Source: an uncultured Bacilli bacterium
GTDB taxonomy: Bacteria > Bacillota_I > Bacilli_A > RF39 > UBA660
Direction: 5' to 3'
NCBI GenBank assembly: GCA_934085595.1
Contig: CAKOHK010000006.1
Span: 12,883 to 76,882 of the forward strand
DNA: 64,000 bases
The notes beneath the pieces are model-generated. The model was given only the letters and a program-made list of their open reading frames with translations, was not told the DNA's origin and did not search any database. Every line of letters begins with the position of its first letter. Position 1 is the stretch's first letter. This document shows, one piece after another, positions 23,034 through 61,140 of this stretch. Made by a program: the position numbers and the translations under genes.

Positions 23034-23040
23034 GTGAATT

Positions 23041-25130: not shown

Positions 25131-25142
25131 AATAAGTATTAA

Positions 25143-25170: not shown

Positions 25171-25187
25171 GGAAAAGTACAAATAAA

Positions 25188-25216: not shown

Positions 25217-25247
25217 AACAAAGCAAATTGAAAAAGGGGTTAGGGTT

Positions 25248-26498: not shown

Positions 26499-26499
26499 A

Positions 26500-38151: not shown

Positions 38152-38679
38152 ATGAAAAAAATATTAAAAAATGATAAAAAAATAACAAGTAGAAATTACT
38201 ATATGGTTTTAATAGTGTCAATTATAGTAATAGTATTAACATTATATATAAGATCATTTATTATAAATTATCAAAACAATGTTAATAATACTAGCGTATT
38301 TGAAAAGAATAATATTAAATCTATAACAATAAATGATTTAGATTACATAATCCCAGAAACTGATGAAGCAATTATTTATGTAAGTTACACTGGAGATAAA
38401 AAAGTAACGGCTATGGAAAGTAAACTTTACAAAGAAATTAAAAAGAAAAAATTAGAAGAAAAGATAATATATTTAAATATAACAGATAATTTAGAAGGAA
38501 ATGAATACAGCGTATTATTAAAAGAAAAATTAAAAGATGTTAAAGAAAAAATAAACACACCACCAATGCTTATATATATTAAAGATGGTAAATGTATAGA
38601 TGCGATGAGTAGCGAATTAAAACAAATAGATTATAAAGTATTCGATAAACTAGTAGAAGAGTACAATATAACGGATTAA
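38152..38679 (+). CDS. Membrane-anchored hypothetical protein
   Basis: N-terminal TM helix. A terminator (aatatgtt...aacatatt + T-run) is near 38683-38712. Confidence 0.4.
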   Translation: MKKILKNDKKITSRNYYMVLIVSIIVIVLTLYIRSFIINYQNNVNNTSVFEKNNIKSITINDLDYIIPETDEAIIYVSYTGDKKVTAMESKLYKEIKKKKLEEKIIYLNITDNLEGNEYSVLLKEKLKDVKEKINTPPMLIYIKDGKCIDAMSSELKQIDYKVFDKLVEEYNITD

Positions 38680-38747: not shown

Positions 38748-40367
38748 ATGAAAGGATATATAGTAATTAATTATATAAAAGATTCTTTATGTTATAACTT
38801 TAGAAAAATAACAAAAGAAGAAAAAAAATATGTAAATAGTAATTCTTTATATAAAGATAGTCTTTTTTATAGCTTAAATTACCTAAAAAAGAATATTAAT
38901 AAAATCTCTTCAACCATAAAAAATAACTTTAATGAAATAAATTATTTTATAGTAAGAACTACAGTAACATTTAAATATGTTAAAATGTTAATGGAAAAAC
39001 TATCATGTAATAAATTAAGGCTATTATTTGAATACTCTATATCAATAGAAGATTATAATTTATTATCAAGTATTAAAGATTTAAAAGAAATAGATGTATA
39101 CTTTATGCCTACATTTATTATAAATAGATTTGAATCATTAAATATAAAAGTAATAACACACTATACAAATAAAATATCATCAAAGTTTATGTTAGAACAA
39201 GATTCAATAGATTATGATACTTTATATTATAGAAAAAAATTATATATAACAGATGACTATGAAGAATTAGAAGAAGATATAAAAGAGTTCTTTAAAATAA
39301 ATTATTATTTAAAATCAATAGATTTATATTGTTTCGAAAAATCTATTATAGAAAAATTAGTTAAATTAATAACAGAAGATAACACTAAAAATATAGTTAT
39401 TTTAATGCATCAATATAGTGATAAAGGTAACTTTATAAAAACAAACTTTAAATATTTAAAAGATATTAATAAAAAGTGCAAAGAAAACTCTTTATGTGAG
39501 TTTAGAGTAGTATATTCAGAAGACTATTTAAGAAATAATTTATTTAAACAACTATCATATAATAATTTAAAATTAATGATGATAATGATTATATATCTAT
39601 GTGCTAGTACATTTATAATATCTTCTTCATTTAATGCAGTTAATTCACTAAATGCAGATAAATTAAAACATGAAATAATAGAAAATGAAAACAATGATAC
39701 AAAAACCGAGCCATCAGAAGATAATAAAAATGAATTAACAGATAATGATATAGTACTTGATAATAAAGAAGAAGAACAAGTAAAAAGATCTAAATATGAT
39801 TTAGAAAATATAATGGATAATCTTTTAAAAATAAATAATGAAACTGTAGGATACTTAGTAGTAAAAAATACTAATATATCTTATCCAGTAGTTAAACACA
39901 CAGATAATAGTTATTATTTAAAAAGAGACTTCTATAAGAAAAAAACAAGTATGGGATGGGTATTCTTAGACTATAGAAATAGTAAAGATAAGTTTGATGA
40001 TAATAATGTAATATATGCTCATAGTATGAAAAATGGTACGATGTTTGGTACACTTAAAAAAGTAATAGAAAGTAGTTATAGAAGTAATAGTGAAAATATG
40101 ATTATTTCATATGATACATTATTTGGAAAATATAAGTTTAAAATATTCTCAGTATATAAAGTAGATTATACAACAGATTATTTAAAAACTAACTTTGATA
40201 GTGAAAAAGACTTTAATGAATTTGTAAAATTAATTAAATCTCGTAGTGTATTTAAATCAAAAGATAAAGTAAAATATGGAGATAAAATATTAACGCTATC
40301 AACATGTACAGGAAATAACAATAGAAGACTAGTAGTACATGCAGTACTTATAAAGGAGGAAAAGTGA
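38748..40367 (+). CDS. srtB: Class B sortase with ~330-aa N-terminal cytoplasmic extension and one TM helix
   Basis: The C-terminal ~210 aa carry class B sortase motifs: NNETVGYLVVKNTNISYPVVKHTDNSYYLKRDF, MGWVFLDYRNS, NNVIYAHSMKNGTMFGTL (catalytic His), ILTLSTCTGNNNRRLVVHAVL (TLxTC catalytic Cys plus Arg). These are preceded by a TM helix (LKLMMIMIIYLCASTFIISSSF) and a 280-aa N-terminal domain of unknown function. Confidence 0.75.
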   Translation: MKGYIVINYIKDSLCYNFRKITKEEKKYVNSNSLYKDSLFYSLNYLKKNINKISSTIKNNFNEINYFIVRTTVTFKYVKMLMEKLSCNKLRLLFEYSISIEDYNLLSSIKDLKEIDVYFMPTFIINRFESLNIKVITHYTNKISSKFMLEQDSIDYDTLYYRKKLYITDDYEELEEDIKEFFKINYYLKSIDLYCFEKSIIEKLVKLITEDNTKNIVILMHQYSDKGNFIKTNFKYLKDINKKCKENSLCEFRVVYSEDYLRNNLFKQLSYNNLKLMMIMIIYLCASTFIISSSFNAVNSLNADKLKHEIIENENNDTKTEPSEDNKNELTDNDIVLDNKEEEQVKRSKYDLENIMDNLLKINNETVGYLVVKNTNISYPVVKHTDNSYYLKRDFYKKKTSMGWVFLDYRNSKDKFDDNNVIYAHSMKNGTMFGTLKKVIESSYRSNSENMIISYDTLFGKYKFKIFSVYKVDYTTDYLKTNFDSEKDFNEFVKLIKSRSVFKSKDKVKYGDKILTLSTCTGNNNRRLVVHAVLIKEEK

Positions 40368-41002
40368 AAAAGATATTAATTGCAATATTAACAGTTATAT
40401 TATTTATACCTTATCTAAAAGCAGATTGTGACTATCAAAGTGAAGTTAGATTAGGAAAACTAGCAAGTTCAATAACATATGAATATAAATATGATAAAAC
40501 ACATAATAATTTCACATTAACTCTTTATAATGTAAGTGATGAATTATATATAACATACAATCAAAGAATAATAGCACCTACTGATGGTAAAGTTACAATA
40601 AATAATTTAAATCAAGGAACGTATTTATCTTTACCAGTAGAAGCATTAAAAGGAAGCTGTAATGGTTCATTAATGACTTTATATATAATACTTCCATACT
40701 TTAATAAATACTATAATTCAGTAGAATGTAAAGATTATGTTGATAAATTAAAAATATGTACAGATGAATTCTTATCATATGAACCAAATGAAGAATTATT
40801 AACATCAAATATAAATAATTATTTAAATGGAATTAAAAATAATGAAATAAAAGATGATACAAATCAAACAATAACTATAGTAGATAAAGCAAAAAACTTC
40901 GCAAGTAAATGGGGTATAAAAATAGGCTTATCACTAATAACAACAATATCATGTATAGTTTATTTTCAAGTAAAAATAAGAAAATTAAAACATGGACTAT
41001 AA
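40364..41002 (+). CDS. Secreted protein with C-terminal TM anchor, sortase-operon associated
   Basis: Signal peptide MKKILIAILTVILFIPYLKA|DCD. C-terminal hydrophobic segment + KIRKLKHGL. Same architecture and size as the 222-aa cassette protein. Confidence 0.5.
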   Translation: MKKILIAILTVILFIPYLKADCDYQSEVRLGKLASSITYEYKYDKTHNNFTLTLYNVSDELYITYNQRIIAPTDGKVTINNLNQGTYLSLPVEALKGSCNGSLMTLYIILPYFNKYYNSVECKDYVDKLKICTDEFLSYEPNEELLTSNINNYLNGIKNNEIKDDTNQTITIVDKAKNFASKWGIKIGLSLITTISCIVYFQVKIRKLKHGL

Positions 41003-41087
41003 TAGATTTACTTTATAGACAATATTACAATTTTCTTTTTAATATTAATAGTTAAATAAAGTTAATATCTATAATAAAGGAGTGTAT

Positions 41088-41750
41088 ATGAAGAAAATAA
41101 ATAAAATAATGCTCATAATATTAGGAATGTTAATAACTGTTAATGTAAAGGCAGTATGTCAAGATAATAAAATAAATGATTGGGCAGAAAGTTTAGAAAT
41201 AAAGTTTCAAGAAGTAAAAAATGAAGAATATCCATATTCATATTTATTAATGTTAAATAATCCAAGAGAAGATTTAAAAGTAATCGCAAAAGATACATAT
41301 AGTAATGGAGAATATAATGTAGAATATGATACAGACTTTAAAAACTATGTTATTGGAAGCGAAATACATTTTATAAAAAAAGAATATGAATTAAATATAT
41401 ATATGTCAGATAATGCATCTACTTGTGCAAAAGAATTAGTAAAAACTATTAAATATGCAGTACCAAAATATAATGAATATAATGATACATTATATTGTGA
41501 AGCTAATCCAGATGATAAAGAATGTGGAGCATACACAGATACAACAAAGAATGATAAAATGGATGATAAAGTAAAAGACTATTATGATAAACAAATAGAA
41601 AAAGAAGAAATAAGAAATCTACCTACAGGACAAAAAGTATTAAGATATATATTAGAATATGCTCCATATGTACTAGTACCACTAGTTATCCTAGTAACAG
41701 TATATCTAATAGTAATAAAAGTTATAAAGAAAAGAAGTGATGAAGAATGA
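41088..41750 (+). CDS. Small secreted protein with LPxTG-like C-terminal sorting signal (NLPTGQ + TM + KKRSDEE), cassette copy 1
   Basis: Signal peptide ...TVNVKA|VCQD. The C-terminus is RNLPTGQKVLRYILEYAPYVLVPLVILVTVYLIVIKVIKKRSDEE. The ATG 41088 start has RBS AAAGGAG; the track uses GTG 41082. Confidence 0.55.
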   Translation: MKKINKIMLIILGMLITVNVKAVCQDNKINDWAESLEIKFQEVKNEEYPYSYLLMLNNPREDLKVIAKDTYSNGEYNVEYDTDFKNYVIGSEIHFIKKEYELNIYMSDNASTCAKELVKTIKYAVPKYNEYNDTLYCEANPDDKECGAYTDTTKNDKMDDKVKDYYDKQIEKEEIRNLPTGQKVLRYILEYAPYVLVPLVILVTVYLIVIKVIKKRSDEE

Positions 41751-44700
41751 GAAAATTAAAATACCTATTCTTTAGTACATTAGTATTACTAACAAGTATA
41801 AGTACTACATTAGCCATTACTTCATCAGGACAAGTTCCAAATAGTGAAAAAGAAACAATATATCCAAGAGGATACACTACATCATGTAGACCAACTAGTT
41901 CATCAAAAGATGCGATTTATAGCTCAGTTGGAGGAGTACTTAGTGGATATATAGAAAATTCAAATATATATTATGATTCTAAAGTTTCCGATGAACTATA
42001 TACAGACGAAGTATATGCGGAAAGAGCATGTAATGAATATACAGGTTCAAGTGATAATAAAATCCACAATTATGTCTGTGATGGCACTAAACAAACTACT
42101 GGATATGCTTGCTACAAAGAAGGTAAAGTAACATTTGAAATAGATGGAAGAACCTATGAAAATATTGATGTTGATGGTGGAAGAATGTATCCCACAGAAT
42201 CTGATTGTAGTTCAAACTGTTCAGGTACATGTAAACTTCAACAAGGATATAAATATATTTATGGAAAGCAAACACAAACTGGTGAACTAAAAAATGGGAA
42301 AATAATTAATGTTGAAGGTATGCAATATCTTACTAAAAGTGGTGGAAATGCGTTTTGTATTCAGCCTATTTATTCAATGGGGTGCAATCCTGATGGTAGT
42401 CCAAATTATTGCTTAGATAGTCAATTTGATTTAAATACATGTAATAATGCTAAAGAATATAACAATGACTATAGATGTGGACTTGCACATATAGCACTTC
42501 ATGCAACAGAAGTCTTTTCTAAGAACGATAATAAGTTAGATGATAGAGAATATGCAATAGCGGATATAGCGATGAGAATGTATGCGGCATATAAAGGAAA
42601 ATTAAGAGGAACTGTTACATCAGGAGTACCAACAAAGCCAAAAGAGTATCTATATCAATATATATTCGCATTGACTGCTAAAAGAACAATAGCGGATTCC
42701 AATTATCAGAAAGATGGAATGATATGCAACTATGATGCGAATAATATAGGAGTATTATGTACGAATAATAATAACACTTTATACAAAGAAGCACTTAAAT
42801 TATTTATTAATGCTTATAATGCTAATAAACTAGATGCTAGCGGAAATAAAGTACCGGATTTAATAACAAAAAAGATAGATAATTCAACAGAAGAAATTGA
42901 AATAACAAAACCGTGTGAACCTGGTGAAAATGGATGTAAAATAAAAGTGACTCTTGTAACTGCCGATGGAAAAGTAGTAGACGAAGATGACAATGTAACA
43001 TGTTCAAAAAATATATGTACAGCAAAAATATCAGGAGAAAAAACCTGTGTAATCAAAGGTGGACAATCTTATCAAATAAGAGTACAAATAAGTAATTTTA
43101 CTGCAGAAGGTTCGATGAAAATATATCACGATTGTAAACATCCAAATAGTAATCAAATAATGTTCGTATTTGATGCGAAAGGAACCGAAACAGTTGATAC
43201 ATTTGAAAAGAAATACGAAATAAATGCAGTCTGTGAAGATACAACTTGTGATAATAAATCATTACAGACAAAAGTAACAAAAACAAATGCAAGTGGAACA
43301 AGTAACAATATCACATCATGTGATGGATATAGTGAAAATGCATATGGAAAAACGACAAAAGAAATTAATAGCAAATATTATGGAAAAGGAAATTATGATG
43401 GTTATGACAAAATAACTATCGCAGAACCTTCCCTTAAAGATATTTTAAATAATTGTGATAAAAGTTATTTTAGACAAACAAAATATGATCAGGGTGGTGG
43501 AGGATATTGTGAAGTTTACTGCCGTAAAGAAACTGTAATTTATATGGCAGATAAAACAAAAGTGTTCTCTGGAATGCAATTTCAGTATAAATTAGAAGAA
43601 AAAATACCAAATAGTAAAACGACAGATAATCATATAACTTCAATTGTTCAAGTAAAGCAAGAATGTGCATCAGTAATTCATTTTGATGAATGGTATGCAA
43701 AATTAGAAGAATTATTAAAAAATGTTGCAAATGCATGGAACGATTGGAAACATTATGAAGCAATGTATCTTCAAGAAATAGATAAATCTACGGATTATCC
43801 AGAGATCACATGGTATGACCCTCCTTGTACAGCTAACTGTGATGCTTTAAGTGGAAGCAAAACAATGAAAGATGCATGTAATGCTACAAAAGATTTAGAG
43901 GGAGAGTTCTCAACAGGTGGTCAAAAAATTAAAATAGAAGAAGCATGTAAAAATAGAGTAACATATGACCAGTCGACCGGAAGTGTTTGTAATCCAGGAT
44001 GTACATACATTATTAGTTGGTTGCAAAAAAATACCGAACATAACACATACACATATAATAATGGTGGTTCATTATCTAAAAAAGTAGATAAAAGTTCCGA
44101 AATAGATGGTAATTATGGAGGCTCAAGATTGAGCTGTACATATAATAGCGGAACATATAATTATACTTATAGTAGAGACAAAGACGGATCAATTTCATCT
44201 GGTTCAGGTGTGTTAGAAACAGGATTAACTCGTCCATCTAATAGAATTGAGTCATTAAACTATAAAAGTTTCTTAGGAAACGATCCGGATTATTACTATG
44301 GATACTCTAAAGAGCAATGTGAGAATGATGCAGCAAATAGTCTTGGACAAGCTCAATCACTAGCTGCATCAAGAGCATCTGCAGGAGACTATAATTATTG
44401 TGCAGATGTTAAGATATGCAAAAGAATGGTAAATAAAAAATTAGTGCAATATGAATGTGGATGTAACAGGTATACATGGCAAATTACTTCAATATCATCA
44501 ACAACATATAATAGAGGAACGTGCTCATATACTAGTGGTGGAACTTGCTCTCAAGGTAAAAATGCTGATCCTGACAAAGTAAAAAACGCAACACTTGCTA
44601 AAAGAAGTGCATATTTAGCAGCACAAGCAGCAGTACAACAACATTTAAAATATATTCAAAATTGTAACTTATATGGTGCAAATGATTGGGTACATGTTGA

Positions 44701-46150
44701 TTCAGCAATAAAAGATTATGTTTTAACTCTCGGAAGTACAGGATACCCTAGAGAATCTTCTGGAACTGGTGGATCTGGTGGATCTGGTGGCGGAGGTACT
44801 GGAAGTGGAGGAGATGGCACAGGCGGAGGTGGAAACACCGGAGGCGGTGGTGGAGATACAATATATATAACTAAACCTGGTCAGGAACAAACGGCAGCTA
44901 TGCCTGGATATGAAAATTTAAAAGCCACAAACGCTTTATCAACTACTAGCAAATATGCAACAATAAAATTAGCAACTGATAGTTCGTTGAGTACAATAAT
45001 AAAGAAAAATATATTATCAGATGCGAGTTGTCTAAGAACTGGAACATGTCCAGAATTAGATGTGGAATATGATGATATAGCTTACGGAAACACACAAAGA
45101 TATGATAGAACTGCTCATGTAGTAGATTCAGAAGATTTACCTAATAAATATTGTAAAGACGAAAAAGGACAAGACTGTGAATACAGTTACTCAGATATAG
45201 AAAAATGGGTTCCACTAATAGTTTGCGATAACAGCTCTGAAAAAGAAATAAACAAATATTGCTATATACCAAGTGATACAAAAGTACCAACAGCAAGAAG
45301 AGCCTATTTTACAACAACAACAGAACTTATGTATTATAGACCAAATGAATATTATACAGAAAATCATACTGGAAAAGTAATTGAAGTTAAAAGTAATACA
45401 AGGGTTGATTCAAATAAATATGCAATGCTTGGTAAAAACGTATATCCTATATCTAACGTAGATACTGGAATATACGGAATTAGATATCATTTTATAGGAA
45501 TTGGTAGTGGAAAGTTCTATAACATTTCTAAAAACAATAACACAGGATTAAAACTTAACAATTTTGATTATACATGTGCATATGAAGCGTATAATAACTC
45601 AAATAAATATGACTGTGATGGAAGCAGTTGCAATGGAAATGATAATACATGTGTAAGAGTAACTGAAACGGCTCCAAATCTATCAACAACAAAATGGGAT
45701 AAATTAACAGATAAAAAGAGTTATGGATTTATGTTCAAAAATACTGAACTATCAGATATTTTCAAAAATGAAAATAGAAAAATAGGAAATAACTGGAATA
45801 ATGAAAAAGCTCAAATAGCAAAACAAGAAATAGAAGAGTCGGCAACTGATATTTATACAAATAGTGAAAGATTAATGTTAAGTGTAACATTGTCAACAGA
45901 TGCAATTAAGAAAATTAGAGAATATAACGAATCAAGAGAAACAAATGCAGGAGGATATACAGATGATTCACTAATTAGTTGTGAACTTGCAAACGCTATA
46001 GATGGAGATGGAAAAGTGTTCAAAAACTGTAGAAGTGCATTTATAGATGAAATAAGTACAGGAAGTGGGGTACTTGGAATAAAATCAAATAGTGAAATTA
46101 TAAGGGGAGGAAAAGAAATAGGAAGTAGTAGCAAAGGAGGCAATAATTAG
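41747..46150 (+). CDS. Giant (1467 aa) cysteine-rich secreted protein, cassette copy 1
   Basis: Signal peptide MRKLKYLFFSTLVLLTSISTTLA. Dozens of Cys in paired patterns (CDGSSCNGNDNTC, CEPGENGCKIK, CSKNICTAKI). Gly-rich linker SGTGGSGGSGGGGTGSGGDGTGGGGNTGGGGGD. No C-terminal sorting signal. Confidence 0.6.
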   Translation: MRKLKYLFFSTLVLLTSISTTLAITSSGQVPNSEKETIYPRGYTTSCRPTSSSKDAIYSSVGGVLSGYIENSNIYYDSKVSDELYTDEVYAERACNEYTGSSDNKIHNYVCDGTKQTTGYACYKEGKVTFEIDGRTYENIDVDGGRMYPTESDCSSNCSGTCKLQQGYKYIYGKQTQTGELKNGKIINVEGMQYLTKSGGNAFCIQPIYSMGCNPDGSPNYCLDSQFDLNTCNNAKEYNNDYRCGLAHIALHATEVFSKNDNKLDDREYAIADIAMRMYAAYKGKLRGTVTSGVPTKPKEYLYQYIFALTAKRTIADSNYQKDGMICNYDANNIGVLCTNNNNTLYKEALKLFINAYNANKLDASGNKVPDLITKKIDNSTEEIEITKPCEPGENGCKIKVTLVTADGKVVDEDDNVTCSKNICTAKISGEKTCVIKGGQSYQIRVQISNFTAEGSMKIYHDCKHPNSNQIMFVFDAKGTETVDTFEKKYEINAVCEDTTCDNKSLQTKVTKTNASGTSNNITSCDGYSENAYGKTTKEINSKYYGKGNYDGYDKITIAEPSLKDILNNCDKSYFRQTKYDQGGGGYCEVYCRKETVIYMADKTKVFSGMQFQYKLEEKIPNSKTTDNHITSIVQVKQECASVIHFDEWYAKLEELLKNVANAWNDWKHYEAMYLQEIDKSTDYPEITWYDPPCTANCDALSGSKTMKDACNATKDLEGEFSTGGQKIKIEEACKNRVTYDQSTGSVCNPGCTYIISWLQKNTEHNTYTYNNGGSLSKKVDKSSEIDGNYGGSRLSCTYNSGTYNYTYSRDKDGSISSGSGVLETGLTRPSNRIESLNYKSFLGNDPDYYYGYSKEQCENDAANSLGQAQSLAASRASAGDYNYCADVKICKRMVNKKLVQYECGCNRYTWQITSISSTTYNRGTCSYTSGGTCSQGKNADPDKVKNATLAKRSAYLAAQAAVQQHLKYIQNCNLYGANDWVHVDSAIKDYVLTLGSTGYPRESSGTGGSGGSGGGGTGSGGDGTGGGGNTGGGGGDTIYITKPGQEQTAAMPGYENLKATNALSTTSKYATIKLATDSSLSTIIKKNILSDASCLRTGTCPELDVEYDDIAYGNTQRYDRTAHVVDSEDLPNKYCKDEKGQDCEYSYSDIEKWVPLIVCDNSSEKEINKYCYIPSDTKVPTARRAYFTTTTELMYYRPNEYYTENHTGKVIEVKSNTRVDSNKYAMLGKNVYPISNVDTGIYGIRYHFIGIGSGKFYNISKNNNTGLKLNNFDYTCAYEAYNNSNKYDCDGSSCNGNDNTCVRVTETAPNLSTTKWDKLTDKKSYGFMFKNTELSDIFKNENRKIGNNWNNEKAQIAKQEIEESATDIYTNSERLMLSVTLSTDAIKKIREYNESRETNAGGYTDDSLISCELANAIDGDGKVFKNCRSAFIDEISTGSGVLGIKSNSEIIRGGKEIGSSSKGGNN

Positions 46151-46630
46151 ATGAAAGAATCAATATGGGGCTATATGATATTAGCACTAGGAATAGTAAT
46201 AATAGTAGTATTACTATTGGTACAAAGAGTAACAACAACAGGAGAAGAAGATTACTACCTAGTAAGAGAAATATTAGAGTCCTCAATGATAGACGCAATA
46301 GATTATGGTTCTTATAGATTATCAGGAAGAATAGTAATGTCAGCAGAAAAGTTTGAAGAAGTATTTATAAGAAGATTCGCAGAAAGTGTAACGAATAATA
46401 GAGAATATAAATTAGAGTTCTATGAAATCTATGAAGACCCTCCAAAAGCAACAGTAAGAGTAAGGACAGCAAGTGGAGATTATAGTGTAAACTCTGATAC
46501 ATTAAATGTAAGTATAGATACACTATTAAGTGGAATATTAGAAACAAAAGATACAAGAACATGCGATGATGTACCAGAAGATACAGATACTGCTCCAACA
46601 ATACCAGTACTTCCAGTATTTGGAAATTAA
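46151..46630 (+). CDS. Small membrane-anchored protein (159 aa), cassette copy 1
   Basis: Start ATG overlaps/abuts the giant gene's stop (TAGATG). N-terminal TM ILALGIVIIVVLLLV. Confidence 0.5.
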   Translation: MKESIWGYMILALGIVIIVVLLLVQRVTTTGEEDYYLVREILESSMIDAIDYGSYRLSGRIVMSAEKFEEVFIRRFAESVTNNREYKLEFYEIYEDPPKATVRVRTASGDYSVNSDTLNVSIDTLLSGILETKDTRTCDDVPEDTDTAPTIPVLPVFGN

Positions 46631-46635
46631 ACTTA

Positions 46636-46676
46636 AAAGAACTATTAAGGAATAAGATATTTATAGTTCTTTTTTT
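46636..46676 (+). terminator. Rho-independent terminator (AGAACTAT...ATAGTTCT + T7)
   Basis: Inverted repeat read directly. Confidence 0.55.
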
Positions 46677-46822
46677 ATAGTAAAACTTAATAACTGTTTA
46701 TAAAGTTAAAGCCTTAAAACATTAAAATAAGTATGAAAATGTACAAATTTTATTTTCAAATAAAACATGGACTATAATTTATAAAAATGATATACTTATT
46801 TTATAAAAGTAAAGGAGTGTAT

Positions 46823-47485
46823 ATGAAGAAAATAAATAAAATAATGCTCATAATATTAGGAATGTTAATAACTGTTAATGTAAAGGCAGTATGTCAAGAT
46901 AATAAAATAAATGATTGGGCAGAAAGTTTAGAAATAAAGTTTCAAGAAGTAAAAAATGAAGAATATCCATATTCATATTTATTAATGTTAAATAATCCAA
47001 GAGAAGATTTAAAAGTAATCGCAAAAGATACATATAGTAATGGAGAATATAATGTAGAATATGATACAGACTTTAAAAACTATGTTATTGGAAGCGAAAT
47101 ACATTTTATAAAAAAAGAATATGAATTAAATATATATATGTCAGATAATGCATCTACTTGTGCAAAAGAATTAGTAAAAACTATTAAATATGCAGTACCA
47201 AAATATAATGAATATAATGATACATTATATTGTGAAGCTAATCCAGATGATAAAGAATGTGGAGCATACACAGATACAACAAAGAATGATAAAATGGATG
47301 ATAAAGTAAAAGACTATTATGATAAACAAATAGAAAAAGAAGAAATAAGAAATCTACCTACAGGACAAAAAGTATTAAGATATATATTAGAATATGCTCC
47401 ATATGTACTAGTACCACTAGTTATCCTAGTAACAGTATATCTAATAGTAATAAAAGTTATAAAGAAAAGAAGTGATGAAGAATGA
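46823..47485 (+). CDS. Small secreted LPxTG-like protein, cassette copy 2 (identical to 41088-41750)
   Basis: Identical amino-acid sequence to copy 1 from MKKINKIM on. Confidence 0.55.
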   Translation: MKKINKIMLIILGMLITVNVKAVCQDNKINDWAESLEIKFQEVKNEEYPYSYLLMLNNPREDLKVIAKDTYSNGEYNVEYDTDFKNYVIGSEIHFIKKEYELNIYMSDNASTCAKELVKTIKYAVPKYNEYNDTLYCEANPDDKECGAYTDTTKNDKMDDKVKDYYDKQIEKEEIRNLPTGQKVLRYILEYAPYVLVPLVILVTVYLIVIKVIKKRSDEE

Positions 47486-50400
47486 GAAAATTAAAATACC
47501 TATTCTTTAGTACATTAGTATTACTAACAAGTATAAGTACTACATTAGCCATTACTTCATCAGGACAAATACCATCAAATCAAAAAGAGTTTATATGGTA
47601 TAAAGGAAAAAGCTGTGCTCCAGGTTCAGAAGTAAAATATGGTCCAGTATCAGGTTATTATAGTGCTTTTTCTTCAGATAGTAAGAAATCTTATACATAT
47701 TACACATCACCAACTATATATACTGATGAAGCATATGCTACAAAAGGATGTGAATACTTTACATCACAAAGTAAAAATAAAGATAAAAATTATTTATGTA
47801 CAGGGACTAAACAAACATCAGGATATGCTTGTTACAAAGAAGGAAAAGTAACATTTGAAATAGATGGAAGAACATACGAAAATATTAATGTTGATGGTGG
47901 AAGAATGTACACTAGTGAATCAGAATGTGCTGATAACTGTAGCGGAACATGTAAAGTTCAAAAAGCATATGGATTTGAATATGCAACAGAAATAGACACA
48001 GGAACAACTACTAACGGTGAAATAGCGCCTCTTTATGGAGATGTATACTCAACAGCAAATGGTAACCCTGCATTTTGTATACAACCAGCAGCAAGAATGA
48101 GTTGTTATGGAGATAATAGTGCCCAATATTGTTTAAACAGTACTTTCGATTTAACAACATGTAATACAGCAAATGGATATAAATCTGATTATAGATGTGG
48201 TCTTGCAAATATAGCACTTCATGCAACAAAATTAAAAAATAATGACAATGCATTAAACGATGAAGAATATGCTATCGCAGATATTGCAATGAGAATGTAT
48301 GCAGCATATAAAGGAAAATTAAGAGGAACTGAATACGCATCAGTGCCAACAGAATCAGCATTCAATGAAAGCGGATTAAAAAAGAATGTGTTTATGGGTA
48401 AATATCTATTTGGATTAACAGCCAAAAGAGTAGACCAAGATGGTAATTATTTAAATAATGGACTTAAATGTAATACAGATACAAGAAACATAGGAATTAT
48501 GTGTAACTGTGATCCAAAAACAGGAAGCTGTCAATATAATCAAACTACATACTTAGAAGCATTAAAATTATTTAAAATGGCACTTGATACAAATACACTA
48601 GATAGTGAAGGAAACAAAGTACCAGACTTAATTACAAAAAATATAGATAACACAACAAGTGAAATAGAAATAACTAAACCATGTGAGCCAGGAGAAGACG
48701 GATGTAAAATAAAAATAAGTCTTGTAACTGCTGATGGAAAAGTAGTAGACGAAGATGACAATGTAACATGTTCAAAAAATATATGTACAGCAAAAATAAC
48801 TGGTGAAAAAACATGTATTGAAAAAAGTCAAAAGTATAGCGTAAAAGTTGAAATATCTAATATAAAGTTTGATGGAGAAATTAAAGAATACCATCACTGT
48901 ACTTATCCAAACGATAGACAAATAATGATGGTTCTAGATATAGCGGCACAGGAAGTAACAGATAACTTTACTAAAACTTATGAAGTTAAAACAACATGTG
49001 ATTCATGTGTTAATAATTCTTCTGATATGAAAACAACAATAACATCAGAAAATGCTAATGGAACTAAAAATAAATCATTAACAGCATGTGACGGAAATAA
49101 AAATTATGGTGAAGGTGACTACGATGGATATGACAAAATAACAATCGCTGAACCATCAATGGATTCTATACTTAAAAGTTGTGATAAAGAATCATTTAGA
49201 GAGAGTGAGTTTGAAATAAATACTGGAGGATATTGTCAAATATATTGTAGAAAAGAAACTGTAATATATTTAGCAGATAAAACAAAAGTATTCTCAGGAA
49301 TGCAATTCCAATATAAATTAGAAGAGAAAGTACCTAATAGTAAAAAAACAGATAATCATATATCATCAATAGTACAAGTTAAAAAAGAATGTACATCTGT
49401 TATAAATTATCAAAAGTTTGAATCAGAATTAGAAGCAAAATTAAAACAAGTAGCAAATGCTTGGACTGAATATAAAAAATGGGAAGCTCTTAGATATGCT
49501 GAGTCATATGCAGATGATTCAAGTTATCCAAAAGTAGCATCTTATAAACCACAATGTAGCGCAAACTGTGATATAGGTGACAATCAAACTGTAAATAAAG
49601 CATGTCAAGAAGTAAGTGGAGAAGGTGCATTTATATTAGAATGGACAAGTGGAAAAATTGCTGGTACTAAAGGCTATGGCGCTAATGCATGGTGTGGTTC
49701 AGTACCTCAAACAGATATAGATTCAGGCGGTGTGTGTAATCCAGGATGTCACTTTAAATTAAGATGGTATAAAAACGGAAATACAAAATATCAACAATTT
49801 ACATATAGTGGAAACGGAAACGGAAGTAATTCAGGAAAAGAAGCATCAGCACAAGATGGAGAACTATATGGAATATCTAATAGAACATGTATAGCAAGAG
49901 ACGGAGGATATAACTATAAAACCATTGATAATGGTGGTGGAAAGTGTTCATGTGCATCATCCGGAACAGTAAATGGATTTACAGAAGTTATGTCATTGGA
50001 TAATCCATACACTAAAGCAAAATGTAATGCAGATTATAAAGACAAAAAAGGTTTTTCTGCACCAAGTAATAGTTGTTCATATCAATCAGGAACAGAAAAG
50101 TATGAATGTGGAACCATTAGAAGACCTAAGTCATGTATTAGAGCTGTGTATACAACTAAAACATGTGAAGGTTCATTTACAGGTTATGCATCAAGTTCAT
50201 GTAATTTTACATCAACAGGATCTTGTACACCGGGTAAAGATGGTGATCCACAATATGTAGCTAAACATTTAGTTGAAGCAGCGGAAAAATATTATTCACT
50301 ACAAAATGAAGTATTACAAATGCTTAAAAACTTAGAAAACTGTAATTTCTATGGTAATGATTGGATTGCAGGAGAACCAAGCTTTAAATCATATGAATTA

Positions 50401-51786
50401 AGTCTTACAAAAGGTGGAACTCGTGGTCTAGTATCAACTGCACAAGCAATATTAAACGCAGGAAAAGTAGTTGAAGGAAATTATGGTGAAGGTGGAGGCG
50501 GTGGCGGAGAAGTCATTAGTATTCCAGAATTCGATGCATTAAAAATGTCATACGACTTCACAAGCGATGTTAAAACATCAACTGCTCTAGAAGAATATAA
50601 TAATAACTATGCAAAAATAAAACTAGCAACAAGTACAAACGATGTAATAAAGAAAAATATTCTAGCATCAGCTACATGTTTAACAAATAATACATGTCCA
50701 GAACTAGATGTAGAATATAATGATGTAGCATATGGAAATACACAAAGATATGATAGAACTGTAAATGTAGTAGCAGATGACGATATATTTAATCATTATT
50801 GTATAGGTGACAATTGTGGTTTATCAGTAGATCAAGTTAAAAGTAATACATACTTTATAGAATGTGACGATACAGGATTAAAACCAGAAAAGAAAACATG
50901 TAAAGTAATAACAGTTCCAGTATCACATGCAACAAAAGCATACTTTACTTCAACAACAGAACTTATGTATTATAGACCAAATGAATATTATACAGAAAAC
51001 CATACTGGAAAAGTAATTGAAGTTAAAAGTAATACAAGAGTTGATAGTGGAAAATATGTATCATTAGGTAAAAATGTATATCCAATATCAAATGTAAATA
51101 CAGGAATATATCCTATAAGTTATCATTTTACTAATATAGGTAGTGGTAAATATTATAATGTTTCTAAATATAATCAAACAGGTTTAAAACTAACTAATTT
51201 TGATTATGATTGTGCATATGAAGCATACAATAATTCAAATAAATATGACTGTGATGGAAGCAGTTGTAATGGAAATGATAATACATGTGTAAGAGTAGTA
51301 GAAACAGCTCCAAATCTATCAACAACAAAATGGGATAAATTAACAGATAAAAAAAGCTACGGATTTATGTTCAAAAATACTGAACTATCAGATATTTTCA
51401 AAAATGAAAATAGAAAAATAGGAAATAACTGGAATAATGAAAAAGCTCAAATAGCAAAACAAGAAATAGAAGAGTCGGCAACTGATATTTATACAAATAG
51501 TGAAAGATTAATGTTAAGTGTAACATTGTCAACAGATGCAATTAAGAAAATTAGAGAATATAACGAATCAAGAGAAACAAATGCAGGAGGATATACAGAT
51601 GATTCACTAATTAGTTGTGAACTTGCAAACGCTATAGATGGAGATGGAAAAGTGTTCAAAAACTGTAGAAGTGCATTTATAGATGAAATAAGTACAGGAA
51701 GTGGGGTACTTGGAATAAAATCAAATAGTGAAATTATAAGGGGAGGAAAAGAAATAGGAAGTAGTAGCAAAGGAGGCAATAATTAG
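47482..51786 (+). CDS. Giant (1434 aa) cysteine-rich secreted protein, cassette copy 2 (mosaic paralog)
   Basis: The first ~29 aa and the last ~165 aa are identical to copy 1, and the preceding ~120 aa are near-identical. The centre alternates identical blocks (YACYKEGKVTFEIDGRTYENI; EYAIADIAMRMYAAYKGKLRG; EIEITKPCEPGE.GCKIK..LVTADGKVVDEDDNVTCSKNICTAKI; KTKVFSGMQFQYKLEEK) with strongly divergent stretches. The Gly-rich linker is shortened to GEGGGGGGE. Confidence 0.6.
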   Translation: MRKLKYLFFSTLVLLTSISTTLAITSSGQIPSNQKEFIWYKGKSCAPGSEVKYGPVSGYYSAFSSDSKKSYTYYTSPTIYTDEAYATKGCEYFTSQSKNKDKNYLCTGTKQTSGYACYKEGKVTFEIDGRTYENINVDGGRMYTSESECADNCSGTCKVQKAYGFEYATEIDTGTTTNGEIAPLYGDVYSTANGNPAFCIQPAARMSCYGDNSAQYCLNSTFDLTTCNTANGYKSDYRCGLANIALHATKLKNNDNALNDEEYAIADIAMRMYAAYKGKLRGTEYASVPTESAFNESGLKKNVFMGKYLFGLTAKRVDQDGNYLNNGLKCNTDTRNIGIMCNCDPKTGSCQYNQTTYLEALKLFKMALDTNTLDSEGNKVPDLITKNIDNTTSEIEITKPCEPGEDGCKIKISLVTADGKVVDEDDNVTCSKNICTAKITGEKTCIEKSQKYSVKVEISNIKFDGEIKEYHHCTYPNDRQIMMVLDIAAQEVTDNFTKTYEVKTTCDSCVNNSSDMKTTITSENANGTKNKSLTACDGNKNYGEGDYDGYDKITIAEPSMDSILKSCDKESFRESEFEINTGGYCQIYCRKETVIYLADKTKVFSGMQFQYKLEEKVPNSKKTDNHISSIVQVKKECTSVINYQKFESELEAKLKQVANAWTEYKKWEALRYAESYADDSSYPKVASYKPQCSANCDIGDNQTVNKACQEVSGEGAFILEWTSGKIAGTKGYGANAWCGSVPQTDIDSGGVCNPGCHFKLRWYKNGNTKYQQFTYSGNGNGSNSGKEASAQDGELYGISNRTCIARDGGYNYKTIDNGGGKCSCASSGTVNGFTEVMSLDNPYTKAKCNADYKDKKGFSAPSNSCSYQSGTEKYECGTIRRPKSCIRAVYTTKTCEGSFTGYASSSCNFTSTGSCTPGKDGDPQYVAKHLVEAAEKYYSLQNEVLQMLKNLENCNFYGNDWIAGEPSFKSYELSLTKGGTRGLVSTAQAILNAGKVVEGNYGEGGGGGGEVISIPEFDALKMSYDFTSDVKTSTALEEYNNNYAKIKLATSTNDVIKKNILASATCLTNNTCPELDVEYNDVAYGNTQRYDRTVNVVADDDIFNHYCIGDNCGLSVDQVKSNTYFIECDDTGLKPEKKTCKVITVPVSHATKAYFTSTTELMYYRPNEYYTENHTGKVIEVKSNTRVDSGKYVSLGKNVYPISNVNTGIYPISYHFTNIGSGKYYNVSKYNQTGLKLTNFDYDCAYEAYNNSNKYDCDGSSCNGNDNTCVRVVETAPNLSTTKWDKLTDKKSYGFMFKNTELSDIFKNENRKIGNNWNNEKAQIAKQEIEESATDIYTNSERLMLSVTLSTDAIKKIREYNESRETNAGGYTDDSLISCELANAIDGDGKVFKNCRSAFIDEISTGSGVLGIKSNSEIIRGGKEIGSSSKGGNN

Positions 51787-52266
51787 ATGAAAGAATCAAT
51801 ATGGGGCTATATGATATTAGCACTAGGAATAGTAATAATAGTAGTATTACTATTGGTACAAAGAGTAACAACAACAGGAGAAGAAGATTACTACCTAGTA
51901 AGAGAAATATTAGAGTCCTCAATGATAGACGCAATAGATTATGGTTCTTATAGATTATCAGGAAGAATAGTAATGTCAGCAGAAAAGTTTGAAGAAGTAT
52001 TTATAAGAAGATTCGCAGAAAGTGTAACGAATAATAGAGAATATAAATTAGAGTTCTATGACATCTATGAAGACCCTCCAAAAGCAACGGTAAGAGTAAG
52101 AACAGCAAGCGGAAATTATAGTGTAAACTCTGATACATTAAATGTAAGTATAGATACATTACTAAGTGGAATATTAGAAACAAAAGATACAAGAACGTGT
52201 GAAGATGTACCAGAAGATACAGATACTGCCCCAACAATACCAGTACTTCCAGTATTTGGAAATTAA
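51787..52266 (+). CDS. Small membrane-anchored protein (159 aa), cassette copy 2
   Basis: 3 aa substitutions relative to copy 1. A terminator (aagatact...agtatctt + T-run) follows near 52271-52298. Confidence 0.5.
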   Translation: MKESIWGYMILALGIVIIVVLLLVQRVTTTGEEDYYLVREILESSMIDAIDYGSYRLSGRIVMSAEKFEEVFIRRFAESVTNNREYKLEFYDIYEDPPKATVRVRTASGNYSVNSDTLNVSIDTLLSGILETKDTRTCEDVPEDTDTAPTIPVLPVFGN

Positions 52267-52358
52267 AACGAAAGATACTAAAAAAGTATCTTTTTGTATA
52301 CACAAAAATGTTAGAAAATTAACTTATAAAATCAGACTAATAATTTTAATTTTGCTTC

Positions 52359-52388
52359 TTGACATTGAAGGAAGAATATAATTATAAT
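52359..52388 (+). promoter_or_regulatory. Sigma-A-type promoter TTGACA-18-TATAAT upstream of TasA-like paralog A
   Basis: TTGACA 52359-52364; tandem TATAAT hexamers at 52377-52388. The block TTTGCTTCTTGACA...TATAATT(G/A)TTAATAGAGAATA is repeated upstream of paralog C at 55765-55815. Confidence 0.5.
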
Positions 52389-52415
52389 TGTTAATAGAGA
52401 ATAAAGGAATGTAGA

Positions 52416-54212
52416 ATGAAAGATAAAAAGTTTATATTTGCAAGTGTATTGGTAGCAGTATTTTTATTAACAGTAGGTCTAACTTATGCTTATTTTAGTT
52501 TGACAGTTAGTGGTAATGATGTAGCTGAGACTATAAATGTAAATACTACAAAGTTAGAATTAAAATATACTGATGGAAAAGAAGTAAAAGCAAATGGTAT
52601 AGAACCAGGCTGGACCATGACTAAAACTTTAACTATTGAAAATACTGGAACAGAAGAAGTTTTTTATGATTTAGGATGGCAAGATTTAACTAATGAAATA
52701 GAACAAGATGAACTTAAAATAAGTGGTACATGTGATAGTGGAAGCTGTGAAGATATAGAAGAAAGTATAGTACCTCTAGTATCAAATCAAAAAGCAAGTT
52801 CTGGTAAAGTAGTTAATCCATATAAAAGTGGAATAGCTATCGCAGGTGGTGAAACACATTCATATACAATTAAACTTGAGTTTATAAATTATACTGATAA
52901 AGCACAAAACTATAATCAAGGTAAAAGATTATATGGAGTACTTGGAGTAGCTGAAAGCACTAAAACATTTAACTTAACATTGAATTTAGAAGATGAAAAT
53001 GGAAATCCACTAGCAAATAAAGAAGTGACAATACATTCAGAACCTAAAACTTCAACATCTGATAGTGCAGGAAAAGTTGTATTTAATGACGTAGAAGTAG
53101 GAATGCATAATTTAGAAGTAAAAACTGATACTAAAACATTAAATGCTAAAGTAAAAGTACAAGGTTCAAATAATAATGCGGTTGAAAAAACAGATAATAA
53201 TTATACAATTAAAGGAACTTCAAAGGAAAATAATATTAACTTAGGAATAACAGTTGATAGTGAAAAGGTAACAGATGTATACGTGAAAGGTAGTAAACTT
53301 AATGCTTATTTAATAGATAATTATAGTGCGTTAGGTTTAACTAAAATTGAGCAGGCGGCAGTAAATAATCAAACTTATGATAGTACTGAATATAGATATC
53401 AAGGAGCAAATCCAAATAATTATATAACTTTTAATAATGAAGAAGGTAAGTGGAGAATCATCGGCGTATTCGAAGTTGAAACACCTAATGATGATGGAAC
53501 ATATACTAAAGAAAATAAAGTAAAGATAATAAGAGATTCAATAGGTACATCGGCGTATGATGGTAAAACAACACTTTTAGTAAATTATAAAGTTTCAACT
53601 ATAAATAGTAATTTAAATAATTCTAATGGTGCAGCGCCTTATGATATATTGAAAAATAATTCAAGCTATATTACTAAAACAAGATATTATATGGGAAATG
53701 TATCAGAATCTCAAATGTTGAAAGGTATTTATAGCGATGAGAGAAACAAAAGTTCTAATAGTGATAGCGACTATGATGACTTCTTTATTGGGTTAATTTA
53801 TACAAGTGATTATATGTATGCAAGTAGTAGTTGTTATGATAAAGATAATAATACATCCACAAAGTTAGGATACTCTACAAGTGAAAGTAATGATTACAGA
53901 GCATGTACAAATGATAATTGGTTGTATACTGGTAATAATTATTGGACTTTTAATAATAGCAAATATAGTGACGAAGAACACATTTATACAGACAATTATC
54001 AAGTTGGAAAGTTGAGATTCACTTCTGCAAAAATTGCAGCTCCAAGTGGAGGATATTTATTTCCTGTTTATATTTCTGAAGATGGAAAAATATACTACCA
54101 AAACAGAAAATCCAGTTATAATGTAAGACCTTCATTATATCTAAGTACAGATGTAACATTTATGAGTGGCAATGGCACTATAGATAATCCATTTACTATA
54201 TCAATTAAATAA
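52416..54212 (+). CDS. TasA/CalY-like multidomain fibre protein (paralog A, 598 aa) with SipW-cognate signal peptide
   Basis: N-terminus ...LLTVGLTYAYFSLTVSGNDVAE (SipW-cognate motif). Conserved NYNQGKRLYGVLGVAES block. A central Ig/CnaB-like insert and a ~250-aa Cys-containing C-terminal domain are shared with paralog B. Confidence 0.65.
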   Translation: MKDKKFIFASVLVAVFLLTVGLTYAYFSLTVSGNDVAETINVNTTKLELKYTDGKEVKANGIEPGWTMTKTLTIENTGTEEVFYDLGWQDLTNEIEQDELKISGTCDSGSCEDIEESIVPLVSNQKASSGKVVNPYKSGIAIAGGETHSYTIKLEFINYTDKAQNYNQGKRLYGVLGVAESTKTFNLTLNLEDENGNPLANKEVTIHSEPKTSTSDSAGKVVFNDVEVGMHNLEVKTDTKTLNAKVKVQGSNNNAVEKTDNNYTIKGTSKENNINLGITVDSEKVTDVYVKGSKLNAYLIDNYSALGLTKIEQAAVNNQTYDSTEYRYQGANPNNYITFNNEEGKWRIIGVFEVETPNDDGTYTKENKVKIIRDSIGTSAYDGKTTLLVNYKVSTINSNLNNSNGAAPYDILKNNSSYITKTRYYMGNVSESQMLKGIYSDERNKSSNSDSDYDDFFIGLIYTSDYMYASSSCYDKDNNTSTKLGYSTSESNDYRACTNDNWLYTGNNYWTFNNSKYSDEEHIYTDNYQVGKLRFTSAKIAAPSGGYLFPVYISEDGKIYYQNRKSSYNVRPSLYLSTDVTFMSGNGTIDNPFTISIK

Positions 54213-54300
54213 GATACTAAAACCTAGTACCTTTTTATAGGTTCTATTGTAATTAATCATTAGAGTTGATATAATAATAACTAGAGTAAAGGAAGATAAT

Positions 54301-55725
54301 ATGAAAGATAAAAAGTTTATATTTTCAAGTATATTGGTTGCAACATTCTTGTTAACAGTAGGGCTAACTTATGCTTATTTTAGTTTGACAGTTAGTGGTA
54401 ACGATGTAGCTGAAACTATTAATGTAAATACTACAAAGTTAGAATTAAAATATACTGATGGTAAAGAAGTAAAAGCAGACGGTATAGAACCAGGGTGGAC
54501 TACAACTAAAACTATTACAGTAGAAAATAAAGGTAATGAAGAAACATATTACACTCTTGGATGGCAAAAACTTTATAATGAGATTCAAAAAGATGAACTT
54601 GTTATAAGAAGTTCGTGTACAAGTAGTGGAGTAACTACAGGTACATGTCAAAGCACTGAAAATGTAATAATTTCACAGACTCTAGTAGTGACAGCAGAAA
54701 CAAATAAAGTAGTATATCCATATAAAGAAAATGCAAAGATATTACCAGGTGAAGTTCATACCTATACTATAACGATAGAATTTATAAATTATACTGACAT
54801 GCCACAAAACTATAATCAAGGCAAAAGCTTTTATGGAGTGTTAGGAGTAGCAGAAAGTGGCGAAAAATCAATTCTTGCAGATTATCTAATAGAAAATTAT
54901 CAAACGTTAGGTTTAACAAAAATAGATCAAGCTGCAACTGGTAATCAAAATTATGCTACAACCGAATATAGATATCAAGGAAAAGATCCAAATAATTATA
55001 TTACATTTAATGATGAAACTGGAGTATGGAGGATAATTGGTGCTTTAGAAGTAGAAACACCTCAAACAGATGGAACTTATATTAAGGAATATAAAGTTAA
55101 AATTGTTAGAGATAGTCTAGAAAATGGAAAGTGGGGAAGCGTGTCTGCAAATGACTGGACTTCAGCATCACTTATGACTACATTCAATAGCGGAGATTAT
55201 TATAATAGAAGTGGTTCTTATAGTGAAACTGGATTAACGGAAAATGCAAAAAATCAAATAAGCAGTACGAAATGGTATTTAGGAAATGCACAATATGGTG
55301 TTAATACGCAAAAAGTATATTCATCTGAAAGAAGTACTAGTGTACAAAGTGGCAATAAGCAAACATGGGATGGAAAAGTTGCGCTTATATATCCTAGTGA
55401 CTATATGTATGCAAGTAGCGCATGTTATAATGATGATACAAAAAAAGGTTGGGATACTAATGGTATATCACCATTTAATACAGATTATAGAAGTGAAACA
55501 TGCAAAAGTACAGGATGGTTATTAGATACAAATCAATGGTATTGGGCTATTTCCCCAAACAATTTCAGTTCAGATTTTGCAATGGTTATACTTAGTGAAG
55601 GATATATGAGAAGTTATAGTAGTTATCGTAATTCAGGTGGTATTCGTCCTTCATTGTATCTTAACGCTAGTGTAAATTACATATCAGGATCTGGAAGTAA
55701 TAGTGACCCATTTATAATAGGTTAA
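54301..55725 (+). CDS. TasA/CalY-like multidomain fibre protein (paralog B, 474 aa)
   Basis: The N-terminal ~60 aa are nearly identical to A. It has the NYNQGKSFYGVLGVAES block and a homologous C-terminal domain (YRYQGKDPNNYITFNDETGVWRIIGALEVETP...). Confidence 0.65.
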   Translation: MKDKKFIFSSILVATFLLTVGLTYAYFSLTVSGNDVAETINVNTTKLELKYTDGKEVKADGIEPGWTTTKTITVENKGNEETYYTLGWQKLYNEIQKDELVIRSSCTSSGVTTGTCQSTENVIISQTLVVTAETNKVVYPYKENAKILPGEVHTYTITIEFINYTDMPQNYNQGKSFYGVLGVAESGEKSILADYLIENYQTLGLTKIDQAATGNQNYATTEYRYQGKDPNNYITFNDETGVWRIIGALEVETPQTDGTYIKEYKVKIVRDSLENGKWGSVSANDWTSASLMTTFNSGDYYNRSGSYSETGLTENAKNQISSTKWYLGNAQYGVNTQKVYSSERSTSVQSGNKQTWDGKVALIYPSDYMYASSACYNDDTKKGWDTNGISPFNTDYRSETCKSTGWLLDTNQWYWAISPNNFSSDFAMVILSEGYMRSYSSYRNSGGIRPSLYLNASVNYISGSGSNSDPFIIG

Positions 55726-55822
55726 CTAATAAAAAAGTGTTCACGAAAGTGTTCGCTTTTTATTTGCTTCTTGACAGGGGGGGTACCTTTATAATTATTA
55801 ATAGAGAATAGAGGTACATAGA

Positions 55823-61050: not shown

Positions 61051-61140
61051 TTTGACTATTCTTTCTAATAATAGTATTATTATATTAGGTAAACTATATA
61101 ATAATACTTTTTATATGGTTTAGAATAAAAGGGTGTTCTT

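Follow-up and report, generated by a model that had tools for sequence, protein, structure and literature searches.

A tandem cassette of giant Cys-rich secreted proteins and its proposed place in a Tad-like pilus system of low-GC Gram-positive bacteria

The type IVa pili of Pseudomonas and Neisseria carry the non-pilin tip adhesins PilY1/PilC together with the minor pilins PilVWX/FimU. In Vibrio cholerae (TcpF/TcpB) and enterotoxigenic Escherichia coli (ETEC; CofJ/CofB), the secretion of a Sec-exported factor depends on a type IVb pilus. Gene content is shared with a "secretion-related operon" of Roseburia, Ruminococcus and Eubacterium (Miller et al. 2022, PMC9523054), in which CpaF, PilC/GspF-like and DUF5411 genes occur with a large protein whose "cell invasion" domain is internalin-like. 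The operon was predicted by computation only, and the 2022 study does not contain the giant protein family, sortase fusion, allelic cassettes or duplications described below. The present analysis concerns a 64,000-nucleotide stretch of an uncultured Bacilli bacterium (contig CAKOHK010000006.1, positions 12,883 to 76,882; hereafter the window), in which a cassette of three genes, encoding a small membrane protein, a giant Cys-rich secreted protein and a DUF5411 protein, occurs twice in tandem. The reading preferred here, given a probability of roughly 0.5, is that this cassette supplies the variable working part of a Tad-like (type IVc-related) pilus system, so far uncharacterised, in low-GC Gram-positive Clostridia, with the giant protein as a variable adhesin or cargo on a pilin-like adaptor.

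Both cassette units lie on the forward strand. The first begins with a small gene (41082-41750, with a probable true start at the ATG at 41088) for a 220/222-aa type-I membrane protein with four invariant Cys residues, which is followed by giant A (41747-46150; 1467 aa, 54 Cys) and a gene for a 159-aa, putatively pilin-like DUF5411 protein (46151-46630) that abuts the giant A stop codon. Beyond a duplication junction (46631-46822), the second unit repeats this order with an identical small gene (46787/46823-47485), giant B (47482-51786; 1434 aa, 58 Cys) and a second 159-aa DUF5411 gene (51787-52266). Comparison of the two units by blastn shows that 41075-41833 and 46810-47568 are 100% identical over 759 bp, comprising the small gene and the first 87 nt of the giant gene, and that 45283-46631 and 50919-52267 are 94.3% identical over 1354 bp, comprising the last ~870 nt of the giant gene and the DUF5411 gene. 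Between these ends, the giant centres align in pieces of 76-82% nucleotide identity and are otherwise undetectable. At the protein level, the giants have identical signal peptides and are also identical in their last ~162 aa, 3 of the 159 residues distinguish the two DUF5411 copies, and a Gly-rich linker is long in giant A and short in giant B. The tandem arrangement, the Cys-rich giants with linkers of unequal length, and the mosaic rather than uniform divergence proposed in the initial annotation are thus all borne out by the ORFs, the Cys counts and the alignment. The window has a G+C content of ~25%, and the cassette flanks are chromosomal (UvrB, PcrA, PFOR, Ffh).

Giant A consists of a Sec signal peptide, a conserved N region (residues ~1-690), a hypervariable Cys-rich centre (~690-1000), the long Gly-rich linker and a conserved C region (~1070-1450). 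The C-terminus (...RGGKEIGSSSKGGNN) is a conserved soluble tail with no hydrophobic segment. A word-index homologue search returned nine clusters, and its repetition with a 9-sequence profile gave the same nine, whereas a profile search run exhaustively over 1.84 billion representatives returned 190 clusters (E ≤ 1e-3), of which 132 reach E ≤ 1e-10. On sequence grounds, the giants are therefore members of a family that lacks annotation and comprises about 190 clusters, mostly of 1000-1600 aa, with mid-N and C-terminal regions in common. When the giants were searched whole and as seven segments at E ≤ 10, nothing credible was found in Pfam, NCBIfam or PHROGs, and a sequence search of the PDB with a single protein and with 10-sequence and 60-sequence profiles gave Gly-linker noise or nothing. 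Six family representatives likewise contain no family-relevant Pfam domain; one, P0130, carries Flg_new repeats. The absence of a known domain, as first claimed, thus holds across all four resources. The giants have no PHROG match and their flanks are chromosomal, so they do not belong to the phage structural proteins. A thioester-domain adhesin was considered and rejected: no match to the Pfam thioester domain (TED) is found at E ≤ 10 on residues 180-380 and, although an [FY]C[IV]QP motif is present, the Gln motif TQxA[IV]W is replaced by A[LM]R[LM][WY].

Several features of the giants recall PilY1/PilC. Both exceed 1000 aa, have an ordinary Sec signal and no pilin N-terminus, are encoded beside a minor-pilin-type gene, and combine a conserved C region with a variable region. 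In contrast to PilY1/PilC, the giants show no sequence relation (the beta-propeller family PF05567, Neisseria_PilC, has no Pfam match on the giant C-terminal segments), their host is Gram-positive, the associated apparatus is Tad-like, the Cys content is extreme, and the operon includes a sortase and two small membrane proteins.

The protein encoded directly behind the giant is considerably more constant. The 97 homologues of DUF5411 are 47-97% identical, a conservation much above that of the giant, and the giant stop and DUF5411 start abut or overlap in every locus. An AlphaFold2 model of DUF5411, based on a 45-sequence alignment, has a predicted local distance difference test score (pLDDT) of 71 and consists of a 46-residue N-terminal helix with a hydrophobic start, two short helices and a three-stranded sheet; a Foldseek search of the PDB with this model gave no significant match. 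The DUF5411 leader reads MKE[SA]FW[GATM]Y (for example, MKEAFWGY), and DUF5411 has an M[KR]E[AS] start, with a hydrophobic helix behind it, in common with the pilin of the related loci described below (MKEATGELNMTVV...) and with a 161-177-aa pilin-like protein (MREAIAGTW...). With moderate confidence, DUF5411 is predicted to be a pilin-like adaptor. The 2022 paper, which contains no experiments, noted its co-occurrence with CpaF and PilC/GspF in Clostridia and named the arrangement a predicted secretion-related operon (PMC9523054).

In seven related loci, found through the contigs of DUF5411 homologues (L004, L005, L008/L009, L010/L011, L012, L013 and a GCA_016648615.1 contig), the giant gene or genes, DUF5411, a class B sortase (SrtB) fusion and a gene for a 212-aa membrane protein directly adjoin a Tad-like apparatus. 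DUF5411 is thus encoded beside a PilB/CpaF-family ATPase and a platform protein in these relatives, not inside the window. The apparatus begins with one or two RcpC/CpaB-like genes, a T2SSE (CpaF-type) ATPase and two polytopic proteins of ~299 and ~266 aa, and continues with an 88-106-aa pilin, a 156-191-aa pilin-like protein, a ~325-aa TadZ-like protein and a 115-125-aa membrane protein; LtaS comes next in the four loci whose contigs reach that far. The ATPase assignment is exemplified by the 463-aa protein of L010 (PF00437, 8e-29). In L012 (2-9921) and the GCA_016648615.1 contig, the order is PedC-like gene, giant 1, giant 2, DUF5411, sortase, 212-aa gene and apparatus, and the ~220-aa gene is not present between those genes. 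The initial annotation overlooked this link to an apparatus in relatives.

The resemblance to Tad/Flp (type IVc) systems, known from Aggregatibacter, Caulobacter and Bifidobacterium, extends to the CpaF/TadA-type ATPase, two platform-like proteins, CpaB/RcpC-like and ParA/TadZ-like proteins, a small pilin and accessory pilin-like proteins, all of them in the relatives. Differences are also apparent. The locus pilins read MKEA[TS]GELNMTVV... and lack the EY of the Tad/Flp G/XXXXEY motif, no TadV peptidase is present in the locus, the RcpC matches (25.6-26.5 bits) fall under the Pfam cut-off of 28.8, and TadE/TadF (PF07811) were not detected. The assignment of the 299- and 269-aa polytopic proteins as platform-like, without a Pfam match to either, is tentative, as is that of the RcpC/CpaB-like proteins. 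Giant secreted proteins, the SrtB fusion and a PedC-like protein are additions relative to Tad/Flp.

A number of observations weigh against assigning the cassette to such a pilus. The 64-kb window contains no Tad apparatus gene, and the operons on the sister contigs run directly into PFOR; because of this absence from the window, the Tad link for this species rests on relatives. The loci, to which the search was confined, showed no prepilin peptidase. DUF5411 does not conform to a class III signal peptide (short basic leader, Gly at −1, Glu at +5), since the residue at its putative cleavage site (G7) can be G, A, T or M and no Glu stands at +5. The AlphaFold2 model of giant residues 1-700 (6-sequence alignment) has a pLDDT of only 39 and was left out of the fold search, so no adhesin fold is shown. 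Finally, the sortase, although conserved, is left unexplained by a Tad-like pilus. In this species, the operon has become separated from the machine, which may lie elsewhere in the genome or have been lost. Part of the relatives' cluster is found in the window: a 120-aa membrane protein, an LtaS-type sulfatase (684 aa; Pfam Sulfatase) and a 201-aa protein (18296-21385, forward strand) are 51-57% identical by tblastn to genes of L008 and L010. This trio sits ~17 kb from the operon, and its homologues in L008, L010 and L012 stand at the distal end of the cluster. The ~120-aa protein (18296-18658; 17774-18133 in L010) has two transmembrane (TM) helices, a Cys-rich tail (CLPCINHP..C) and weak T4SS_pilin/Tad Pfam matches, and is always encoded just before LtaS.

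The gene content, synteny, allelism, divergence pattern and the DUF5411 model, read as pilin-like, are direct results of this analysis, and the docking of the giant on DUF5411, its surface display and its role as an adhesin form the best-supported model built upon them. According to this model, the giant, which has a signal peptide, would be exported by Sec and would fold outside the cell, stabilised by disulfides or metal. Its strongly conserved C-terminal region would then dock on the DUF5411 protein encoded directly behind it. DUF5411, in turn, would insert into or prime a filament made by the CpaF-type ATPase and platform proteins, and the giant would thereby be displayed at the pilus or cell surface, as PilY1/PilC are via minor pilins. 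The hypervariable centre would lie exposed, where a ligand, the immune system or phages could meet it. In this genome, a second allele would have been gained in tandem, with recombination keeping both ends of the unit alike (small gene and signal peptide at one end; C region and DUF5411 at the other). The broader proposal of an undescribed surface or secreted system, made in the initial annotation, is supported.

The same synteny and gene coupling would be expected if the giant were instead a secreted cargo, such as a colonisation factor or toxin-like effector, that is released by the Tad-like machine with DUF5411 as tip pilin. In agreement with release, the giant has a Sec signal peptide and neither a membrane nor a cell-wall anchor, and the 2022 study called this type of operon "secretion-related" (PMC9523054). 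Like TcpF and CofJ, the giant is a soluble Sec-signal protein from a pilus operon, and a hand-over to a tip minor pilin, as for TcpF and CofJ, is proposed for it here; unlike the giant, those cargos are of about 35 kDa, unrelated in sequence and from Gram-negative hosts. However, a protein of this size, with its Gly-rich linker and hypervariable centre, is more readily understood as an adhesin or antigen on display than as an enzyme that is released, and no toxin or enzyme domain was found. Release as a cargo is thus considered rather unlikely.

The display model treats the giant as the variable part of the system, and this variability was quantified. Identity between the L010 and L005 proteins is 89% for the ATPase, 79% for the TadB-like protein, 67% for DUF5411 and 26% for the giant; because the giant falls to 26% against 67-89% for the other components, it is the fastest-evolving component of the gene set. 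To describe the divergence within the window, giants A and B were aligned by codon and compared in Nei-Gojobori windows. Synonymous divergence (dS) is 0.4-1.9 across the whole centre, including blocks of 85-93% amino-acid identity in which nonsynonymous divergence (dN) is 0.04-0.14. Because dS is saturated there while dN stays this low, the conserved central blocks are old and held by purifying selection, without recent conversion. Blocks previously described as perfectly conserved are thus conserved in amino acids and not in nucleotides, with a dS of 0.4-1.0. At the 3′ end, dS is ~0 in the last ~100 codons and 0.17-0.19 in the two preceding windows. Homogenisation is confined to the two ends of the cassette unit (759 identical bp at one, dS ~0 in the terminal codons of the other), and the gene conversion first proposed is not supported for the central blocks.

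Diversifying selection, which had also been proposed, was not borne out. In the A/B comparison, the dN/dS ratio (ω) is below 1 in nearly all windows; a few windows at 1.25-1.55 lie in saturated stretches, where they are not credible as positive selection. In the comparison of B with the L001 allele, which is unsaturated, ω is 0.15 for the N region, 0.39 for residues 691-960 and 0.26 for the C region; the highest single 60-codon window stands at 0.99. In this comparison, dS also climbs from 0.19-0.26 to 0.65 in the hypervariable part. Since dS is raised there too, the signature is that of relaxed constraint together with recombination between alleles, and it does not demonstrate positive selection.

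Three contigs of the same species (L001, L006 and L007; flanks of 96-99% nucleotide identity) each carry one cassette that is followed directly by PFOR. The single cassette of L006 is of the A type (99% identical to copy 1; giant A is also 99% identical to protein P0001), that of L007 is of the B type (99% nucleotide identity to copy 2), and that of L001 is a B-like allele (91%). Proteins P0002-P0006 are all B-like, making B the commoner type. Because sister strains hold A only or B only, the two types are alternative alleles of a single locus, both of which are present in the window. The existence of such strains also means that the tandem could in principle be an assembly chimera of an A strain and a B strain joined via their common 759-bp repeat: the shared flanks are long enough to mislead short-read assemblers, and the window proteins have no exact match in other records. 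The junction argues otherwise. Downstream of the A copy of DUF5411 it contains a terminator-like hairpin and ~100 nt of unique sequence with no counterpart in any fetched locus, then what is left of the 3′ end of the 212-aa gene, decayed and missing 15 nt (at about 46745-46778), and then the ancestral spacer; the 5′ boundary of the duplication falls within the 3′ end of the 212-aa gene. A graph mis-join creates neither the unique sequence nor the deleted remnant, and it does not explain the 10- and 30-nt insertions specific to the spacer before copy 1. Because of the unique sequence and the degenerate remnant, a true insertion of a second allele is favoured and a chimera is very improbable; proof needs long reads. 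A terminator scan under a G+C-rich rule called no terminator, and AT-rich hairpins are visible by eye 3′ of both DUF5411 genes. The 212-aa gene of L001 contains masked Ns, so no pseudogene call was made.

An independent tandem duplication of the cassette is present in a distant relative (L009 5377-15045; ERZ28612947 scaffold_390), which is a further argument against a chimera. Its giants, of 1311 and 1145 aa, are 37% identical, whereas the 3′ 725 bp, comprising the giant C-terminus and DUF5411, are 92% identical; the DUF5411 copies are identical in protein, and the small genes are only 40% identical. Homogenisation of the 3′ end of the giant together with DUF5411 is thus seen in two independent genomes (94% in the window, 92% in L009). 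In L012 and the GCA_016648615.1 contig, the two giants that stand side by side are 38% identical.

The strain under study also carries a 3.9-kb insert directly after the cassette (52267-56190), with three TasA/camelysin-type genes, that is missing from L001, L006 and L007. Its ORFs (52416-54212, 54301-55725 and 55823-56191) have N-termini of the SipW-dependent TasA/camelysin type (PF12389; TIGR04090 weak) and a common unannotated C-terminal domain, and the third is a short deletion derivative. They are preceded by a perfect TTGACA-18-TATAAT promoter (52359-52388), and no sipW gene was noticed in the window. L001, for its part, has an IS-type integrase (rve; 932-1678) between DUF7666 and PcrA that is absent at that place in the window.

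Upstream of the cassette lie three further genes of the operon, all on the forward strand. The first encodes a 175-aa PedC-like/DUF6568 membrane protein with a thioredoxin fold (38152-38679; Pfam PF20207, 1.4e-18) and is found in the same position in L001, L003, L006, L007, L009 and L010; a function as disulfide oxidoreductase was rejected, as the sequence has no CxxC motif. The second (38748-40367) encodes a 539-aa protein that, from a TIGR03064 score of 169.5 bits against a cut-off of 153.75 and its catalytic motifs, is identified as a class B sortase, with the Pfam Sortase domain at residues 371-534. An extra cytoplasmic N-terminal domain of ~270 aa, which has no Pfam match, is atypical for this class; the protein also has one TM helix. 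The N-domain and the TLSTC and NRRLVVHA motifs are kept at 49-58% identity in L003, L009 and L010, and YAHS/YGHS, TLSTC and NRRLVVHA are invariant in four homologues. The third gene (40364-41002) encodes the 212-aa type-I membrane protein, which has a signal peptide, a Cys-containing ectodomain, a C-terminal TM helix and a tail reading RK.KHG[IL] in an alignment of five homologues, and no significant Pfam match. The 222-aa protein of the cassette has, in an alignment of eight homologues, four invariant Cys residues and a TM helix with a basic tail; paralogy of the 212- and 222-aa proteins is unsupported (BLASTP E 0.9). In distant metagenome-assembled genomes, the six-gene order of PedC-like protein, SrtB fusion, 212-aa protein, ~220-aa protein, giant and DUF5411 is kept. 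Of these, the PedC-like protein, the SrtB fusion and both small membrane proteins (212 and 222 aa) are predicted to be conserved accessory factors.

An intact class B sortase in every locus could indicate a sortase-dependent surface system in which the SrtB fusion links the giant, or the 212/222-aa proteins as its holders, covalently to peptidoglycan without a pilus. The C-terminal TM helix and basic tail of the 212/222-aa proteins have the outline of a sorting signal, and the operon of this genome stands without a pilus apparatus. As in sortase-assembled Gram-positive pili and LPXTG adhesins, including those of the thioester-domain type, a sortase gene adjoins a large secreted protein, and [FY]C[IV]QP bears a superficial resemblance to the thioester Cys motif. 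Unlike in those systems, the giant lacks a sorting signal, a Pfam TED and pilin-type CnaB/CnaA domains. Its conserved tail is soluble and has no hydrophobic segment, which speaks against its earlier description as a sortase-associated surface protein. The NLPTGQ sequence of the 222-aa protein, on which its description as LPxTG-like was based, is missing from seven homologues, even at 58% identity, and the 212-aa family shows no Pro-containing motif ahead of its TM helix. Moreover, elsewhere the same genes are embedded in a Tad-like cluster. A sortase-dependent system without a pilus is thus judged distinctly unlikely. No operon protein shows a recognisable sorting motif that would mark it as the substrate of the sortase.

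To our knowledge, there is no precedent for a conserved sortase within a type IV-family pilus locus. It is conceivable, although doubtful, that a Tad-like machine displays or exports the giant allelic Cys-rich proteins via DUF5411 with the SrtB fusion as an integral assembly or anchoring enzyme. If true, the system would represent a new class of pilus in Gram-positive bacteria and the first mechanistic link of sortase chemistry to type IV-family pili.

Linkage to pilus genes could also be only positional, with the giant forming part of another envelope structure such as a spore appendage, exosporium or S-layer-like coat. Cys-rich extracellular proteins in a low-GC clostridial-type organism, and a collagen-repeat (BclA-like) gene with glycosyltransferases in the same window, are consistent with such a role. 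However, the giants have no homology to known spore or S-layer families, and their linkage to DUF5411 and the Tad-like genes is tight and resists rearrangement across distant taxa, which makes this role improbable.

Other features of the window lie at a distance from the operon. At 7860-11036, where G+C rises up to 0.38, a collagen-triple-helix repeat protein (10173-11036, reverse strand) is encoded beside two family-2 glycosyltransferases (7860-9068; 9078-10166, with TPR) in an arrangement that resembles that of BclA-type exosporium glycoproteins. A 501-aa protein with weak AAA_5-type ATPase matches, followed by a DUF2357 protein (3733-6349), may constitute a McrBC-like restriction module. 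Five large ORFs in succession (460, 615, 450, 728 and 320 aa; 21460-29620) separate the LtaS block from UvrB; apart from DUF7192 in the last, they have no Pfam match. After ffh, by synteny with L001 (19836-24395), a large protein with FHA and double FtsK/SpoIIIE domains is predicted to begin (~61140-64000); these domains and its description as EssC-like (type VII secretion ATPase) come from the precomputed annotation of L001 only.

Little is known about the adhesion organelles of anaerobic Clostridia, those of the gut included. Apart from the computational flag of 2022, the gene set described here (the giant family, DUF5411, the SrtB fusion, the two membrane proteins and the PedC-like protein) was unannotated, and it now has a testable assignment to a Tad-like pilus. 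Because the giant is the most variable part of this set, exists as alternative alleles and has been duplicated repeatedly, it may determine host or niche specificity, or may be a target of phages or immunity.

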